Source: an uncultured Spirochaetota bacterium
GTDB lineage: Bacteria; Spirochaetota; Spirochaetia; SZUA-6; Fen-1364
Assembly (NCBI GenBank): GCA_963820525.1
Contig: CAWGAA010000003.1
Coordinates: forward strand, 768,001 to 832,000
Length of the DNA: 64,000 nucleotides
Reading direction: 5' to 3'
The notes below the pieces were generated by a model. That model saw only the letters and a program-made list of their open reading frames with translations. It was not told the origin of the DNA and did not search any database. The stretch's first letter is position 1; the number at the start of each line of letters is the position of its first letter. This document shows, in pieces, positions 56,978-64,000 of this stretch. A program made the translations under genes and the position numbers.

Positions 56978-57033
56978 GAAAAATGCGCGCCGCGATGAAG
57001 CGGACGCATGGTTGAAAAAGGAGGCACGAGTCC

Positions 57034-57768
57034 ATGAAAACTGCGGGATCATCTCGAGAAGCCGGCAATCGTGCGGACCCATCCTGGAGGCTGCTCTATG
57101 CGGCAGGGAGCGCCTCGGCGCTGCTTTACGTCATCATGATCGTCATTCCCCTCACTCTTGTGTTCACCTCTCCCCAGCCTCCGAGCTCGGGAGGAGCGGC
57201 CGTATTGCAGTACATCGCGTCACACAAGGCAATCTACATGGTCGAGCTTGTGTGCTTTGTCGGCCTGAGCGTCCCGGCACTCGTCGTTTTCCTCGCTCTT
57301 TCGGTTTCCCTCAAAGAGCTGAACAAGAGCCTGGCTGCAATTGGCGCTTTGATCGGAATTGTTTCCGAAGTCCTGGCTTTGGCGTTGAACAGCAGCCCCC
57401 CGTCGCTCAACGGCAATCTGGTGTACCTCAGCGCTCAATACGCGGCGGCAGCCACCGATGCCCAGCGTCTGGCGGCGGCGGCCGCAGCCGAGGGTTTCAT
57501 CGCAGAGGCGAACGCCGTTTCTTCCGTCGGCTCATTGACCGCGCTCGGCATTCTGATCCTTTCAGTGGTCATGCTGAAGGGCGTCTTCCGCAAGGGTGCC
57601 GCGTACTTAGGCATTGCGACGGGTGTCGTGGGAATGGTCTTTGAAGCTCTCAGACCGCTGATTGGTTTCGCCTATGGCATCTATGGGCTTCTGCTGCCGG
57701 TATGGTTCGTGGTTGTCGGTTTGAAGCTGTATCAACTGAGCCGCAGTCCCCAACCCGGACAGGGGTGA
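57034..57768 (+). CDS. Multi-pass membrane protein (DUF4386-like)
   Basis: About six hydrophobic helices; AAGGAGG RBS. Confidence 0.6.
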   Translation: MKTAGSSREAGNRADPSWRLLYAAGSASALLYVIMIVIPLTLVFTSPQPPSSGGAAVLQYIASHKAIYMVELVCFVGLSVPALVVFLALSVSLKELNKSLAAIGALIGIVSEVLALALNSSPPSLNGNLVYLSAQYAAAATDAQRLAAAAAAEGFIAEANAVSSVGSLTALGILILSVVMLKGVFRKGAAYLGIATGVVGMVFEALRPLIGFAYGIYGLLLPVWFVVVGLKLYQLSRSPQPGQG

Positions 57769-57773
57769 AAAAA

Positions 57774-57821
57774 GTGAAATTCACAATAACTGCCGGATCA
57801 TGGCGTTATTGCGAAATTCAC
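57774..57821. repeat. Inverted repeat with a TAAC...GTTA core, just past the recombinase stop codon
   Basis: GTGAAATTCACAATAAC (57774-57790) versus GTTATTGCGAAATTCAC (57805-57821): 15/17 complementary. Confidence 0.7.
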
Positions 57822-57825
57822 ACAA

Positions 57826-58623
57826 TTAGAGCGGGCTCTTGATCTTGGCGGCGGTTCTCTCCGTGACATGGAGATAGATCATAGTCGTTTTGACGCTCTT
57901 ATGCCCCAGAAGATCCTTTATCGAGCGTATGTCGATGCCGTTTGAAAGCAGAGCGGTAGCGAAAGAATGCCGTAGAGTGTGGCATGATGCCCGTTTTTGG
58001 ATGCCGCTGCCTTCATAGGCATGGGCGAAAATCGCCTGGACCGTTCTCTTGGTGTACGGTTTCCGGCTTTGGGTGAGGAAAAGGAACTCCTTGCCGTCCC
58101 GATCCCGTACAAGAGCCTTTAACTCCGCCGCGAGGGCTTCCGAGAATACCGTGATCCGGTCCTTGTTCTGCTTTGAATTGACTATCCGGACAGTCAGGGA
58201 AGGGAAATCAAGATCCCGGATTTTAATCCTCACGAGCTCACTCACCCTGAGGCCCGAGCCGAACAGCATGGAGATCATCAGGCGGTGCTTCGGGTTACGG
58301 ATCCTTGACAGAAGAATCAGAATGTCGGCTTTTTCCAGGAACGAGGGAAGCCGGTGTCTTGGACGGGCCTTTTCCAGCTTGTAGGGGCAGGGTTTTTTCA
58401 AAACCAGCTCGTAAAACAGCTTGATTGCGTTCCAGGCGATTCGTCTGGCTTCCTGCGATTCATAGGTGGACAGGAACCGGGATATCCTTTCCACAGGCTC
58501 GAATGCGGTCTTCTTGGAAAACTCAAGGAAGCGGCTTAAGCCGTTGCGATACGCCCTGATGGTGTTCGTTGCATATCCGCGGTTCCTCGATTCCCGAAGG
58601 AAAGCGTCCAGATAATGGTCCAT
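57826..58623 (-). CDS. Tyrosine recombinase (265 aa), integron-associated but lacking the IntI-specific insertion
   Basis: SAM-like N-terminus (RGYATNTIRAY), GLRVSE (R), SKQNKDR (K), HTLRHSFAT (HxxR), LLGH, TMIY (Y), ending KIKSPL. Only ~19 aa lie between KDRITVF and FLF. Confidence 0.92.
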   Translation of the reverse strand: MDHYLDAFLRESRNRGYATNTIRAYRNGLSRFLEFSKKTAFEPVERISRFLSTYESQEARRIAWNAIKLFYELVLKKPCPYKLEKARPRHRLPSFLEKADILILLSRIRNPKHRLMISMLFGSGLRVSELVRIKIRDLDFPSLTVRIVNSKQNKDRITVFSEALAAELKALVRDRDGKEFLFLTQSRKPYTKRTVQAIFAHAYEGSGIQKRASCHTLRHSFATALLSNGIDIRSIKDLLGHKSVKTTMIYLHVTERTAAKIKSPL

Positions 58624-58665: not shown

Positions 58666-58693
58666 TTGATGATTGGGGAAGATGGTTTATAAT
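58666..58693 (+). promoter_or_regulatory. Candidate array promoter (Pc-like)
   Basis: TTGATG (58666-58671), 16 bp spacer, TATAAT (58688-58693), pointing into the array. Confidence 0.65.
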
Positions 58694-58707: not shown

Positions 58708-58732
58708 GAAATTCACACACAACGAGTTGAAC
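58708..58732 (+). other. Candidate primary recombination site (attI-like)
   Basis: GAAATTCACACACAACGA-GTTGAAC. The core at 58726-58732 fits GTTRRRY and is the exact complement of GTTCAAC at the far end of the first cassette. Confidence 0.7.
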
Positions 58733-58820
58733 AAAATCGCTCCGCGATGGCTTTCATCAAGCCTTAGTCTTCATTCGCCGCCATGAAAGCAAGACAGATG
58801 TTTCCCGCTTGTTATACAGC

Positions 58821-60011
58821 ATGGGCTATATTGAAGCGGCAACGGTTTTTCCAAGACCCAAATTCGAAGTCGCCGATGTTTTCAGACAAAGCACCCAGTT
58901 ACTGAAAGGCATCAGTTATGATCATTGGAAAGTCGTAAACGCAATCATAAACTGCCGCGGTCCGAAATTGGGCGGCCATAAACTTGTTTGCCATGAATGC
59001 GGGTATGAACAGATATCCTATAATTCATGCAGGAACCGGCATTGCCCCAAATGCCAGGCGAGCAAGCAGGCGCAATGGGTTTACGAGCGGACACAAGAGC
59101 TTCTGCCCATAAAATATTTCCATATCGTCTTCACCGTCCCGGCGGTATTGAATTCCCTTATTCTCCAGAATAAAAGAGTGCTCTACGACATTCTCTTTCA
59201 CGCCGCAAACGAGACTCTTCAAGAAGCCGCGGGAAACCCGAAGAATCTCGGCGCGAAGATCGGATTTATCGCCATTCTCCACACCTGGAGCCAAAACCTA
59301 CTTGACCATCCACATCTGCACTGCATTGTTACCGGAGGGGGATTGAGCCGGGATAAATCCGCATGGATTGAAAGCAGGAACAACTTCTTTATCTCGATAC
59401 ACATTCTCAATCGATTGTTCAGAGGTAAATACCTGCATTATTTGAAACAGGCATATGCAGCAAAAGAGTTGAGTTTCTTTGGTAAGTTACGCAAGACAGC
59501 AGAGACAGCCGGGTTTGCAAAGGTGTTGGATGAATGTTATGCGAAAAAATGGATCGTCTACGCCAAAAAGCCGTTTTCCAATCCGTTACGCGTACTGAAA
59601 TATATAGGGCACTATACGCATCGGGTAGCGATCAGCAACAAACGGATATTGAATTTCACCGGCGGAAACGTGAGCTTTATATGGAAGGACTACAGGAATA
59701 GAAACCGGAAAAAGGTAATGACACTTGGCGCCTCCGAGTTCATGAGAAGATTTCTCCTGCATGTGCTGCCGGAAGGATTCAAGCGTATACGATTTTACGG
59801 CCTCTTGAGCAACGGGCACAAAAATGAGAATCTGAAATACATCCGTCGTTTGTTATGCATCGATCTAGAATCTCAACAGCGATCGTATGATTTTTTCTTG
59901 GAAGCGCCTGAGACTATCGAAAAAAGATGTCCCCGCTGCAAGAGCGCGAATATTCAGATTATTGAGCTCCCGCCGGAAAATACCGCTGAAAGTTATTGGA
60001 ACAGCGCGTAA
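58821..60011 (+). CDS. IS91-family (Y2 HUH) transposase
   Basis: Zn-binding CHEC..SCRNRHCPKC, YFHIVFTVP, LHTWSQNL..HPHLH (HUH), YIGHY (Y-x3-Y), FLLHVLP.GF.RIRFYG, C-terminal CPRC. Confidence 0.93.
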   Translation: MGYIEAATVFPRPKFEVADVFRQSTQLLKGISYDHWKVVNAIINCRGPKLGGHKLVCHECGYEQISYNSCRNRHCPKCQASKQAQWVYERTQELLPIKYFHIVFTVPAVLNSLILQNKRVLYDILFHAANETLQEAAGNPKNLGAKIGFIAILHTWSQNLLDHPHLHCIVTGGGLSRDKSAWIESRNNFFISIHILNRLFRGKYLHYLKQAYAAKELSFFGKLRKTAETAGFAKVLDECYAKKWIVYAKKPFSNPLRVLKYIGHYTHRVAISNKRILNFTGGNVSFIWKDYRNRNRKKVMTLGASEFMRRFLLHVLPEGFKRIRFYGLLSNGHKNENLKYIRRLLCIDLESQQRSYDFFLEAPETIEKRCPRCKSANIQIIELPPENTAESYWNSA

Positions 60012-60041
60012 TAAAACCCATAGCGCGGGCGGAGCGACTTC

Positions 60042-60236
60042 GTTCAACATAGGGTTTACGCTCCGCTCCCTCCGGTCGCTCCGGGCTTCGCCACATGCCC
60101 CTCTGGCACAGGGCTTGCAGATCAAATCTTCTTACGGTCCTCTAAGATGTGTGGTACACTCTTTTCTATGTTTTGCGGGGCAACCCCTGTGCCAGCCCTT
60201 CGGGACGGGGCATGTCGTAAACCCTTTACGTTATAC
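60042..60236 (+). other. Branched attC-like site 1 (195 bp)
   Basis: GTTCAAC ... GTTATAC ends; stems AGGGTTTACG/CGTAAACCCT, ACATGCCCC/GGGGCATGT and TGGCACAGGGCTTGC/GCAACCCCTGTGCCA, with side arms. Confidence 0.8.
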
Positions 60237-60240
60237 GCCA

Positions 60241-60280
60241 TTGCGCCTTTGTGCATCAGCTGTATAATATGATGTTAGCT
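60241..60280 (+). promoter_or_regulatory. Internal promoter overlapping a secondary attI-like simple site
   Basis: TTGCGC (60241-60246), 16 bp spacer, TATAAT (60263-60268); GTATAAT-ATGAT-GTTAGCT geometry (7-5-7). Confidence 0.6.
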
Positions 60281-60337
60281 CCTTTAAAGAATTTTTACGT
60301 CATTATTATATCTCTGGATTTTGCTTAGAAATACTAT

Positions 60338-60838
60338 ATGTCACAGAAAATGATGACTAGAAATTATCGGTCTGCAATAATTATTTTTATTGGCATTTTG
60401 TTAGTATCGCTTTTGGGATATTTTTTAATAACCAAGAACACTATTGTTGAAGTGTTAAAGTATAGAGAATTCAAAAATGAGCTTGATTCTTTTATAAAGA
60501 ATTTGAATAAGAATGAATTTGAAAAAGCTGCCTATCAATTCCATTTTCTTGAAGCACAAAGTATTGGAATTGAACAATTAAAAAGAAACTTAGAGTCTAT
60601 AAAGAATAGATTTGGTAAAATAATTAATGGATCTAATAATATAACTTATTTAAAAACTAATAATGATAATATTTCATATTATGCCATTATTAGAATAGAG
60701 AATCCAAAAAATGATGGTGAAGTATTAGAAATAGTTGTGTATGAAGAAAATGGATACGGGAAACCTACTATTACTATATTTAATGGAATTGAATTTAAGG
60801 ATGAAATAAATCTCACAGATTGGGTAATAATGAATTAA
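60338..60838 (+). CDS. AT-rich hypothetical membrane-anchored protein (gene cassette)
   Basis: 166 aa ORF with an N-terminal transmembrane helix, bracketed by GTTAGCTCCTTT (60274-60285) and AAAGGAGCTAAC (60842-60853). Confidence 0.8.
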   Translation: MSQKMMTRNYRSAIIIFIGILLVSLLGYFLITKNTIVEVLKYREFKNELDSFIKNLNKNEFEKAAYQFHFLEAQSIGIEQLKRNLESIKNRFGKIINGSNNITYLKTNNDNISYYAIIRIENPKNDGEVLEIVVYEENGYGKPTITIFNGIEFKDEINLTDWVIMN

Positions 60839-60846
60839 GGAAAAGG

Positions 60847-60965
60847 AGCTAACATGCTGTTGAACTTGACGCCTAACACTTGTTGCAGCCATAGTTGCCT
60901 ACGTCCATAGAACCTTATTGCTTTTGGCTTCGGGTCGGCGGCGCAAGTTAACAGCGTTGTTATCT
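60847..60965 (+). other. Canonical attC site (119 bp)
   Basis: AGCTAAC-ATGCT-GTTGAACT-TGACGCC ... GGCGCA-AGTTAAC-AGCGTT-GTTATCT. The arms pair as GCTGTT[G]AACTTG[A]CGCC with two extrahelical bases. Confidence 0.9.
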
Positions 60966-61013
60966 GGCCCCAAGTCCTTTCAAGATTGCCGTGGCCAATA
61001 GGAGAACCGATGA

Positions 61014-63026
61014 ATGAGTGCCAAACGTGCAGCTGTGACCGCAGGACTCCATCCAGAAGCGAACCTTTCACATTTCACTCCGTACGAGCAGGAACTAATC
61101 CAGAAGCAGTTCTGCACCGAGTTCTATGTAACAAACCAAGGCGGCGTAGTCGAGCTGAGCAGGACATCGGTCTACAGATTCTTCTTGATCAAGCCAACCA
61201 CAGTCTATCAGGAGCAGTTTAACCTCGATCGGGAGATTGTCGTTCTCTTTAGCGACTATCCGAATTTTGAGCCGCGTACGCTGGATGCTATTGAGGAAGC
61301 TTATAAAAGGTACCAGGAACTCCGCATAGAGAAGATATGCTCAGTTCTTATAAGTAGAGATGTGGAAATTGAGCAAAAAATAAAAAGCCTCCTGAAAAAC
61401 ACCAGTGAGAGCCAGATCATCGTTCCATTCCACTACAAGGAGTTGCAGACAGTCTCCGACCTATATTTCTTCAGGAATAGATTCAAAGCCCATTTCTACA
61501 GCAGAGACCTTTTCTCATATGAATCTGCACTCAAGAAGGACCTCTACTTTTTCGGCAGGAGTGATCTCGTTCACAAGGTAGTCAATAGACATCGCAGTGG
61601 AGAGAATTCCGCACTTTTCGGGCTGAGGAAAACCGGTAAGACCTCTATCATTTTCGGAATACGCAGGGTGCTAAACGCGACTGAGGAGAACTCTGTCTAC
61701 ATCGACTGCCAGGACTCCGGCTTCTATTTAAAGAGATGGAATCACGCCCTTCGCTATATAATCGACGAAATAAAATCTCAAAACCACGCGTCCGTAATCT
61801 TGTCCGATGAATCCGAATACACTGAGGATGGCTGTAGCGCGGCTTTTGCAAGAGACATATCAAAGTTGCGCAAGAAACTCGGCGGTAAGCCGATAATGAT
61901 CATTTTCGATGAGCTGGAGCGTATAACATTCGGGCTTTCTTCGGCCGAGCATTGGAAAACGGGGAAGGACTTCGTCCATTTCTGGAGAACTCTTAGGTCT
62001 CTGTTTCAGAAGCTGGAGAGCGTTTTTACCTATCTTATTGTTAGCACGAACCCTCGCTCGGTAGAGACGCCTATGGTCAACGGTGACGAGAATCCCATCT
62101 TTTCTCAAGTTCCATACGAATATATCCCGCCATTTGATGTACCTCAGACGAAGGAAATGGTCGAACGCTTGAGCCAGATCATGGGCCTTCACTTCGATGA
62201 GATTCTGTATTCGAAATTGACGGAGGATTTTGGAGGCCATCCATTTCTCATTCGCATGGTTTGCAGCGCGATCAATCGCCTTTGTGACTCAACGCGGCCA
62301 GTGAGAGTCGATAAAACCGTTTACGAGAAAGGCAAGCAACTCTTCAATAAAGAATATAGTAGCTACATAGAGATGGTGGTCACTGTTCTTCGAGAGAGCT
62401 ATTCCGACGAGTTCGAAATGCTCAAGTTCCTAGCGCTTGGCGACATACCGACCTTTATGGAGTTCGCCTCCGCATCTCGAGAGTACACAAATCACCTTCT
62501 CGGCTACAACATCGTTGATCAAAATAACCAATCCTACTCCTTCAAGATCGAATCGATCAGGGAGTATCTGATATCCGAGAACAAGTACAAGAAGCTAGGC
62601 TTAACAAAGAAAGAGATGCTTGCCGAGATATCCGAACGTCGCAATGAACTGGAACCCCGGCTGAGAAACTTGGTGCGCCAAATTCTGCTTGTGGCAATCG
62701 GCGAGTCTGCCGCCGCCACCCTGGTTCGCAATATCTACGGTGATCCGAGAAAAACTAGATATGCTGGCCTTTCCTACAAAGAATTGTTTAATCCAAATAG
62801 GGTAGATATCTATTGGGACGATCTTCAAAAGATTGTCTTAGCCGAATGGGACCACTTCCAGAATGTGTTCGAAAGAGACAGAGAGGCGTTCATCGTGAAT
62901 ATGAAGGCCGTCAACAAGTATCGGTCTGACGCACACGCAAAGGATATCTCTCCGGAAGAGATGGAACTCTTTCGAGTGTGCGCGACGAGATTGGAGACGC
63001 AGATACGAAACTTCTTCGGAGGATAG
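61014..63026 (+). CDS. P-loop ATPase (STAND/AAA-like) with a C-terminal Swt1-like HEPN domain (gene cassette)
   Basis: FFGR, GLRKTGKTS (Walker A), IIFDELE (Walker B), GGHPF; then ELEPRLRNLV..DDLQKIV..W..F..KYRSDAH; AGGAGA RBS. Confidence 0.75.
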   Translation: MSAKRAAVTAGLHPEANLSHFTPYEQELIQKQFCTEFYVTNQGGVVELSRTSVYRFFLIKPTTVYQEQFNLDREIVVLFSDYPNFEPRTLDAIEEAYKRYQELRIEKICSVLISRDVEIEQKIKSLLKNTSESQIIVPFHYKELQTVSDLYFFRNRFKAHFYSRDLFSYESALKKDLYFFGRSDLVHKVVNRHRSGENSALFGLRKTGKTSIIFGIRRVLNATEENSVYIDCQDSGFYLKRWNHALRYIIDEIKSQNHASVILSDESEYTEDGCSAAFARDISKLRKKLGGKPIMIIFDELERITFGLSSAEHWKTGKDFVHFWRTLRSLFQKLESVFTYLIVSTNPRSVETPMVNGDENPIFSQVPYEYIPPFDVPQTKEMVERLSQIMGLHFDEILYSKLTEDFGGHPFLIRMVCSAINRLCDSTRPVRVDKTVYEKGKQLFNKEYSSYIEMVVTVLRESYSDEFEMLKFLALGDIPTFMEFASASREYTNHLLGYNIVDQNNQSYSFKIESIREYLISENKYKKLGLTKKEMLAEISERRNELEPRLRNLVRQILLVAIGESAAATLVRNIYGDPRKTRYAGLSYKELFNPNRVDIYWDDLQKIVLAEWDHFQNVFERDREAFIVNMKAVNKYRSDAHAKDISPEEMELFRVCATRLETQIRNFFGG

Positions 63027-63033
63027 TGGGGAT

Positions 63034-63147
63034 GGATAGCATGCGGTTGAAGCTGACGGTTTGCTTTTGTCTGATCGGTTCGCCATATCATGTTATAGAC
63101 TGTACTCTTATTAGCTGACTCGACGCAACTTAACCGCGTTTTTATAG
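63034..63147 (+). other. Degenerate canonical-type attC site (114 bp)
   Basis: GGATAGC-ATGCG-GTTGAAGC-TGACG ... CGCA-ACTTAAC-CGCGTT-TTTATAG. Same layout as 60847-60965, but AAC is changed to AGC and GTT to TTT. Confidence 0.75.
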
Positions 63148-63196
63148 GCTGTAAATGGTAGAAAAAGGAAGTAGTTTACTACAAAGGCGCATCGGC

Positions 63197-63330
63197 GCAT
63201 AACGGCACATTGGCGTTCCGGTGCCCTACGGGCACCTTCGGGCTCCGCGGCGCTGCGGCGCGCCGCTCCGCCAAATGTCCCTCGGCCCTGTTGGCCTCTG
63301 GCCACTTCGCCAATGTGCTGCACGTTAAGT
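63197..63330 (+). other. Branched attC-like site 2 (134 bp)
   Basis: GCATAAC ... GTTAAGT ends; perfect stem GCACATTGGCG/CGCCAATGTGC; internal hairpin GGTGCCC-TAC-GGGCACC. Confidence 0.8.
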
Positions 63331-63457: not shown

Positions 63458-64000
63458 TTGCCTGACGAAAATAATCAAGTTGATCATGAAAAACTGAATG
63501 CTCTTTTCGCTGAACAATACCGGTGGGCAAGTCTATCTGTAACCATCGAAGAGATTGCGAAAGAAAACAAATTACTTATTCGTGATCTTTCCAGATACGA
63601 TCAAACCATCGCTATTCCTCTCCTGGCAAGTCTCTTAACACTTCCCGAACTGCAATCGCATTGTATTCGTCTTGAAATTCTCAGTTGCCTTGGCAGTGGT
63701 GTATTGCCGCGGCAGTAAGAAAGCAAATATAAAGCAATTAGTTCGTTGGTTCTCCCAGATCGGCAAATCGCAATGTGTGACGGGTGAAGATCCGGCTGAA
63801 GATGTCTTCGTCTACCTAGTGCAGGATGTGCACGGAGACTACCGGCTTATCGGAGGTATATGGGAGTCGGCTGGCTTCTATACTCAGCGCGTTCTCGATG
63901 TAATTTCTACGATGCCTAACACCGGACAATTCGAGCAAATCAAGAGGAGTGTCCGCGCACTACTTATAATCTCCGATATAGTATGTGGCAAAGCTGGGCT
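63458..64000 (+). CDS. N-terminus of a hypothetical protein (next cassette), frameshifted at ~63683 and truncated by the window end
   Basis: After ..CIRLEIL, skipping one base gives an open frame to the end of the window (VALAVVYCRG..EDPAEDVFV..GIWESAGFYTQRV..). Confidence 0.65.

Follow-up and report, generated by a model that had tools for sequence, protein, structure and literature searches.

The window analysed here is a stretch of 64,000 nucleotides from an uncultured Spirochaetota bacterium (GenBank assembly GCA_963820525.1, contig CAWGAA010000003.1, positions 768,001 to 832,000). Near its right end lies the head of a cassette array, where a short tyrosine recombinase gene, a promoter-like element and an attI-like site adjoin a unit whose gene encodes an IS91-family transposase. 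The unit stands directly 3' of the attI-like site and promoter and is divergent from the recombinase. In window coordinates, the features are:

57826-58623, minus strand: short integron-like tyrosine recombinase of 265 aa (PF00589 and PF13495), the platform of the array
58666-58693, plus strand: Pc-like, sigma70-like promoter (10 of 12 consensus positions, a level of match not above chance), facing the array
58708-58728, plus strand: attI-like site, with the crossover between G58726 and T58727
58726-58754, plus strand: left end, consisting of the R' box and a putatively inherited, terIS-like IS end with a 5-bp subterminal hairpin (58736-58748)
58727-60230, plus strand: mobile unit, a 1.5-kb transposase gene cassette with six copies in the genome
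58762-58800, plus strand: leader, a possible remnant of a recombinase-transposase spacer
58821-60011, plus strand: IS91-family HUH Y2 transposase of 396 aa (NF033538, PF04986 and PF14319)
60013-60048, plus strand: right end, with a CCCATAG motif and the inverted repeat up to R'' (60042-60048)
60042-60236, plus strand: branched attC of 195 nt and of the type proper to the array, with its R' at 60230-60236

The platform and the transposase

The recombinase scores 191 bits against TIGR02249 in a profile search, below the cut-off of 265. The IntI-specific insertion that marks an integron platform integrase is absent from it, and it groups in a clade of its own with short integrases that likewise lack the insertion and lie divergent from attI-like sites in seven related genomes (L211-L217). 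Two canonical IntI are encoded elsewhere in the source genome. According to the accessible parts of a preprint, IS91 recombinases belong to an integron-like subgroup without the IntI insertion, and that insertion is needed for DNA recognition (10.1101/542381); the IS91 passage is absent from the accessible parts of the journal version. The array integrase resembles the IS91 recombinases in lacking the insertion but differs from them in clade placement, and the idea that it is an offshoot from within the IS91 recombinases was rejected because it is not nested among them in the tree. Both promoter hexamers are retained at a second attI in the source genome, and similar attI-like sites lie there, before the second copy of the transposase unit (C1:3097073), and beside related integrases. 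This second promoter and attI (C1:3097073-3097200), about 90% identical to those of the window, head a short array whose integrase gene is mostly deleted.

The transposase reading frame is open from 58809 or 58821 to 60011, with homologs suggesting that the start is probably the ATG at 58821, and its product scores 420 bits against the IS91 transposase profile NF033538 (cut-off 125). The HPHLH (59307), YIGHY (59601) and cysteine motifs (58989, 59028 and 59928) are those of an IS91-family HUH Y2 transposase with a zinc-binding domain, an assignment that carries the caveat of an unusual residue at position 264. The preliminary description had called the gene intact, and the open frame and motifs agree with this, but in both first-slot copies His264 replaces the Arg that lies between the catalytic tyrosines in 22 of 22 near homologs and in the internal copies described below; His occurs here in none of 120 homologs. 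Base 59611 encodes Arg in all four of the sequencing runs covered. A structure model of moderate quality (pLDDT 61.6) matched HUH nucleases best: parvovirus NS1 ranked first (Z 8.0 and rmsd 3.8, with 155 positions aligned), and TrwC and AAV Rep scored nearly as well. A Foldseek search with the same model returned nothing at E 0.001, relaxases ranking highest, and no solved structure related by sequence was found. The source genome also has five copies of another family of Y2/zinc transposases, distant at about 24% identity (C2:5500-6900, 57000-58600 and 65300-66900; C1:1300800-1302300; C3:47500-48800).

Downstream of the unit, a carrier cassette occupies 60230-63203. It has a 17/20 outer repeat, a leader resembling a promoter (60243-60270) and two nested cassettes with classical attC sites, one with a 166-aa ORF (60338-60838) and the other encoding a 670-aa AAA/STAND-like ATPase (61014-63026; weak Pfam matches, no PADLOC match). 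From 63458 to 64000 and beyond lies an Upx-like anti-phage gene cassette (NF042954, PADLOC PDLC02221), its gene split by a frameshift near 63700.

Ends and attachment site of the unit

The inverted repeat noted in the preliminary description (58726-58745 and 60029-60048) is confirmed as 20 nt long and 90% complementary (18 of 20), and it is the R'/R'' stem extended outward. The notion that such a repeat is unique to the transposase cassette was rejected, since branched cassettes here commonly reach similar values: 15 others have outer repeats of 13-19 of 20 (median 17), a count that leaves aside two branched sites with no pairable partner and rows judged classical or false. At least 17 of 20 is reached by just 3 of 162 cassettes in the classical array. 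The repeat is thus above chance, yet it is typical of branched cassettes and no mark of the transposase cassette alone. Because the attC finder misses some sites and reports false ones, the attC catalogue behind these comparisons is partial.

Behind the gene, the branched attC-like site that had been proposed from the letters holds up: the bottom strand of 60020-60260 folds at z = -5.69, a value reached by 0 of 200 shuffles, and the site has the complementary R''/R' and L''/L' pairs of an integron attC, a class of site whose recombination proceeds via the folded bottom strand (accessible parts of PMC11023631). A 42-nt arm (98%) is the sole part common to another array attC, and Rfam gave no match. 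An extended -10-like hexamer lies in the long arm (60150-60165) and a TATAAT in the arm of another array attC; both are possible outward promoters.

The hairpin at 58736-58748 covaries in relatives and corresponds to the subterminal palindrome that IS91 elements carry at terIS, so that this end is a putative terIS. IS91 target tetramers and palindromes are described in the accessible parts of PMC13181058. Classical elements end at oriIS beside a GTTC or CTTG target; here the GTTC at 60042 is internal, and copies share sequence to 60230. The earlier suggestion that both tetramers occur at the boundaries is correct for GTTC, which is also found on the bottom strand at 58729, and not for CTTG, which is absent from the three boundary stretches scanned (58715-58760, 60020-60060 and 60215-60245).

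Copies of the unit in the source genome

Six copies of the 1.5-kb unit are present, two after attI, three after an internal attC and one truncated, and all lie in or at cassette arrays. The copies at C3:826726 (the window) and C1:3097073 are 100% identical, each preceded by an attI-like site. The three internal copies are identical to one another and 96% identical to the window copy, each is preceded by a complete internal attC, and they are spaced up to 22 kb apart within one array. The sixth is a pseudogene, truncated at its 5' end and with an internal stop; at C1:2099256-2099420 it is fused to opposite-strand sequence resembling the C-terminal tail of another transposase, for which no source was found in the genome.

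Flanking sequences switch at G/TT on the right side of six of six copies and on the left side of all five intact ones, and the neighbours differ among copies. Each of the six carries an attC of 195-196 nt whose variants track those of the transposase, and no empty copy (this attC without the transposase) was found in the genome. As the six copies share G/TT crossover ends, with entry at both attI and attC, the unit moves as a true cassette, in agreement with the earlier proposal of a transposase that travels in this form. The companion proposal, that it is packaged as a rule in the first slot, is contradicted by the internal position of three of the five intact copies. Three other studies yielded contigs in which the left boundary of the unit is likewise at 58726; in one of them an attC-like end precedes it, and in one the unit ends at 60234. 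These contigs come from 4 of 18 listed runs, and X1 among them may be the source sample. A junction of an excised circle was listed in none of the four contig sets, a negative that carries no weight.

The transposase cassette is the most-repeated gene cassette of the branched arrays, in which other cassettes that do not look like IS elements reach at most two copies. A large classical array lies beside a canonical IntI (C1:684000-835000); it contains a 9-copy, 1.1-kb IS-like repeat and two families of short cassettes that have no long ORF and number 70 and 32 copies.

Relationship to two-gene IS91 elements

A co-oriented tyrosine recombinase lies just upstream of the transposase in 148 of the 157 homolog loci listed (43-55% identical), the rest being too short (seven) or without an upstream recombinase (two). 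These two-gene relatives are ISAzo26-like, the RefSeq label being 'IS91-like element ISAzo26 family transposase' (48% identical). Terminal inverted repeats are found in the two-gene loci (best 20-mer of at least 17 in 36 of 79, against 0 of 79 after shuffling), and a hairpin 3' of the right repeat falls below z = -2 in 41 of the 43 two-gene elements picked by their end motif, compared with 3 of 43 control stretches. Judging from sequence, the two-gene parents thus have terminal inverted repeats followed by a predicted attC-like hairpin. Copy pairs share this hairpin up to a short core, several ending in TT as judged by eye. The groups L161/L162, L056/L074/L120 and L113/L116/L179 lie at varied sites with a short common core ending in TT, as expected if two-gene elements insert by a recombinase-type reaction.

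A point missing from the preliminary description is that the inverted repeat of the window unit is the native end pair of these recombinase-plus-IS91 elements. Its left end aligns with all five of the nearest elements tested, L191, L031, L111, L003 and L190 (p = 0.002 in every case, from 500 shuffles); its right end does so with three of four, L191, L111 and L003 (p = 0.002), L031 staying at p = 0.06. The leader at 58762-58800 matches the L191 spacer (p = 0.002) and not those of L111, L003 and L190 (p 0.07-0.77), that is, one of four, and may mark the site of a deletion. The CCCATAG motif also occurs downstream of two-gene relatives, and 37 of 42 two-gene elements have a subterminal hairpin of at least 5 bp, with four pair types. 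The distance between repeats is 1.32 kb in the window, compared with 2.47-2.50 kb in the five nearest elements; just 95 nt separate the left end from the start codon, with no co-oriented upstream recombinase, and the source genome has no IS91-type helper recombinase. The attC differs from the hairpin of the two-gene parent and resembles array attCs.

A quick tree was built from 97 rows: the window protein, 36 loci and 60 of 120 proteins. In it, the transposase falls in a 23-protein clade (SH-aLRT 98) nested in a clade (100) with spirochaete two-gene elements, and relatives labelled Spirochaetota sit in its neighbourhood. By hand count, contigs shorter than 1750 nt carry 15 of the 23 clade proteins and 14 of 96 others (Fisher p = 3e-6), an excess that fits, indirectly, a compact repeated unit. 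Single-protein scans for the close clade gave no match, and scans of 61 and 401 genomes gave no homolog above 58% identity beyond the source genome, the matches listed in alignment scans being just 40-55% identical; plasmid matches were all below 60%, and an end-pattern search found no viral contig and, among the 401 class genomes, only the source genome. No DNA context was found in these scans for the close clade (P0002-P0022; relatives 70-76% identical), so the case for a clade-wide loss of the recombinase is indirect.

With homologous ends and shared transposase ancestry, the cassette corresponds in sequence to a two-gene element minus the recombinase gene; it retains both ends and carries an attC of the array type. 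It shares with ISAzo26-type elements and ISShvi3 the transposase subfamily, both ends, the subterminal hairpin, CCCATAG and a hairpin after the right repeat, and differs from the ISAzo26 type in lacking the recombinase gene, in the 1.32 kb between its repeats and in its array-type 195-nt attC. One report describes an attC with ISShvi3 next to it as a novel cassette structure (PMC9229058, accessible parts). From IS91, IS801 and IS1294, with which it shares the HUH Y2 enzyme, a left subterminal palindrome and a GTTC near the right end (PMC13181058, accessible parts), the unit differs in running 188 nt past GTTC, in its terminal inverted repeat and in its G/TT recombinase-type boundaries. Like integron gene cassettes it has one gene, an attC with R''/L''/L'/R' and a folded bottom strand, G/TT and entry at attI and attC; unlike them, its cargo is a transposase with inherited ends and its platform integrase lacks the IntI insertions. 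The unit functions like an integron cassette and lies outside the classical IS91 and two-gene groups in the strict sense. No description of a recombinase-less IS91 cassette was found in the openly accessible literature searched; the accessible parts of PMC5737581, PMC7923331, PMC3971601 and PMC9345347 added nothing specific.

Alternative explanations

We think it likely that the unit is an integron cassette of selfish character whose ancestor was a two-gene, ISAzo26-like IS91 element, made up of a tyrosine recombinase and a Y2 transposase. The array integrase, or one of the two canonical IntI, may substitute for the lost recombinase, with the first slot as the normal site of entry. The transposase might nick its own ends and free a single-stranded copy on which the attC folds, and copies might thereby be made while the donor stays; for both steps the chances for and against seem about equal. 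Purifying selection and the presence of three identical copies as much as 22 kb from one another argue for such single-stranded copies, by which the transposase would amplify its own cassette, although the short cassettes at 70 and 32 copies mean that high copy number needs no transposase. Against the selfish-cassette reading stands the adjoining integrase, from which the insertion used by IntI to recognise DNA is missing. The multiplication of short cassettes, the integrase-type character of every boundary, His264 in two copies and the pseudogene would also suit a passive relic, converted once into a cassette and since shuffled and duplicated by the integrase alone with the transposase idle. 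We regard this as unlikely: the ratio dN/dS between variants A and B is 0.125 (30 synonymous and 15 non-synonymous changes; 0.21-0.23 against the pseudogene copy), which shows the signature of purifying selection on the transposase copies, and the ends are kept across variants, the copy number tops that of the other gene cassettes in the branched arrays, and sequencing runs carry the Arg base at 59611. The selection could predate the loss of the recombinase. As the first-slot copies are identical and both have His264, a possibly impaired copy was still duplicated.

The preliminary description had also considered a domesticated partner. On this view the transposase would serve the insertion-less integrase by providing every branched cassette with single-stranded DNA or by assisting in its creation, which seems to us quite improbable. 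The transposase does hold the first slot at both attI sites of the source genome, two other studies give weak hints of an attI-like neighbour, and starts of branched cassettes carry A11 (20 of 20) and A11 with GC14-15 (12 of 19 unique starts, against 0 of 90 classical ones) at positions in register with the IS ends, in a comparison whose IS consensus is partly imposed by a regular expression. Yet none of 19 other starts of branched cassettes has the subterminal hairpin, and none of 17 other R'' boxes is preceded by CCCATA; genome-wide, the two motifs match only the five intact copies, and this confinement favours a selfish passenger over a helper. Nor does the transposase always come first after this recombinase family, being within the first 1.5 kb in none of four informative relatives (nine related-integrase loci, four of them cut short and one outside the clade), and it is multi-copy, with a pseudogene among its copies and His264 in those nearest the promoter. 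TnpAREP/RAYT enzymes are Y1, whereas the window transposase is Y2. Both are HUH enzymes beside palindromic repeats (cf. PMC8266576), but in place of a single stable gene with signals on many repeats we find six mobile copies with signals on their own cassette. An insertion sequence that homes to attC, inserting 58726-60048 at the GTTC of an R'' box so that the attC is target and not cargo, is very improbable. The GTTC at 60042 is an IS91 target tetramer (PMC13181058, accessible parts) and the attC resembles those of the array more than the parental hairpin, but the attC covaries with the transposase in six copies, and what stands to the left of each is a full attC or attI site rather than a cassette gene interrupted ahead of R''. 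Insertion at an att site does not account for movement today, since gene and attC travel together and the genome has no empty copy of that attC; largely refuted in that role, it may describe the founding event only. The attC-targeting IS1111-attC group is likewise multi-copy and mobile in cassette arrays (references in PMC3971601), but the window unit carries its own attC and leaves those of other cassettes uninterrupted, and neither unrelated attC targets nor empty ones were found.

Implications

The selfish cassette amounts to a natural deletion experiment, the element having persisted after loss of its recombinase in just the setting that offers an integron integrase. This suggests that IS91-type jumping genes and integron cassettes use interchangeable machinery. 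Its three variants, one with a natural substitution in the active-site region, form a small testable system for two questions: does a rolling-circle transposase provide an integrase with single-stranded DNA, and can an insertion-less integrase recombine hairpin sites?

To our knowledge, it is not settled what the recombinase does in two-gene IS91 elements, nor how integron cassettes arose. A wider reading, which we offer tentatively and with more doubt than conviction, is copy-out and paste-in by two enzymes: an HUH transposase would peel off its own cassette as a single-stranded circle and an integron integrase would insert it. Two-gene IS91 elements would then be self-propelled cassettes with their recombinase in the integrase's role, and the short integrase and long-repeat branched cassettes would share ancestry with them. 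If true, this reading would provide a concrete route from insertion sequences to attC-bearing cassettes.
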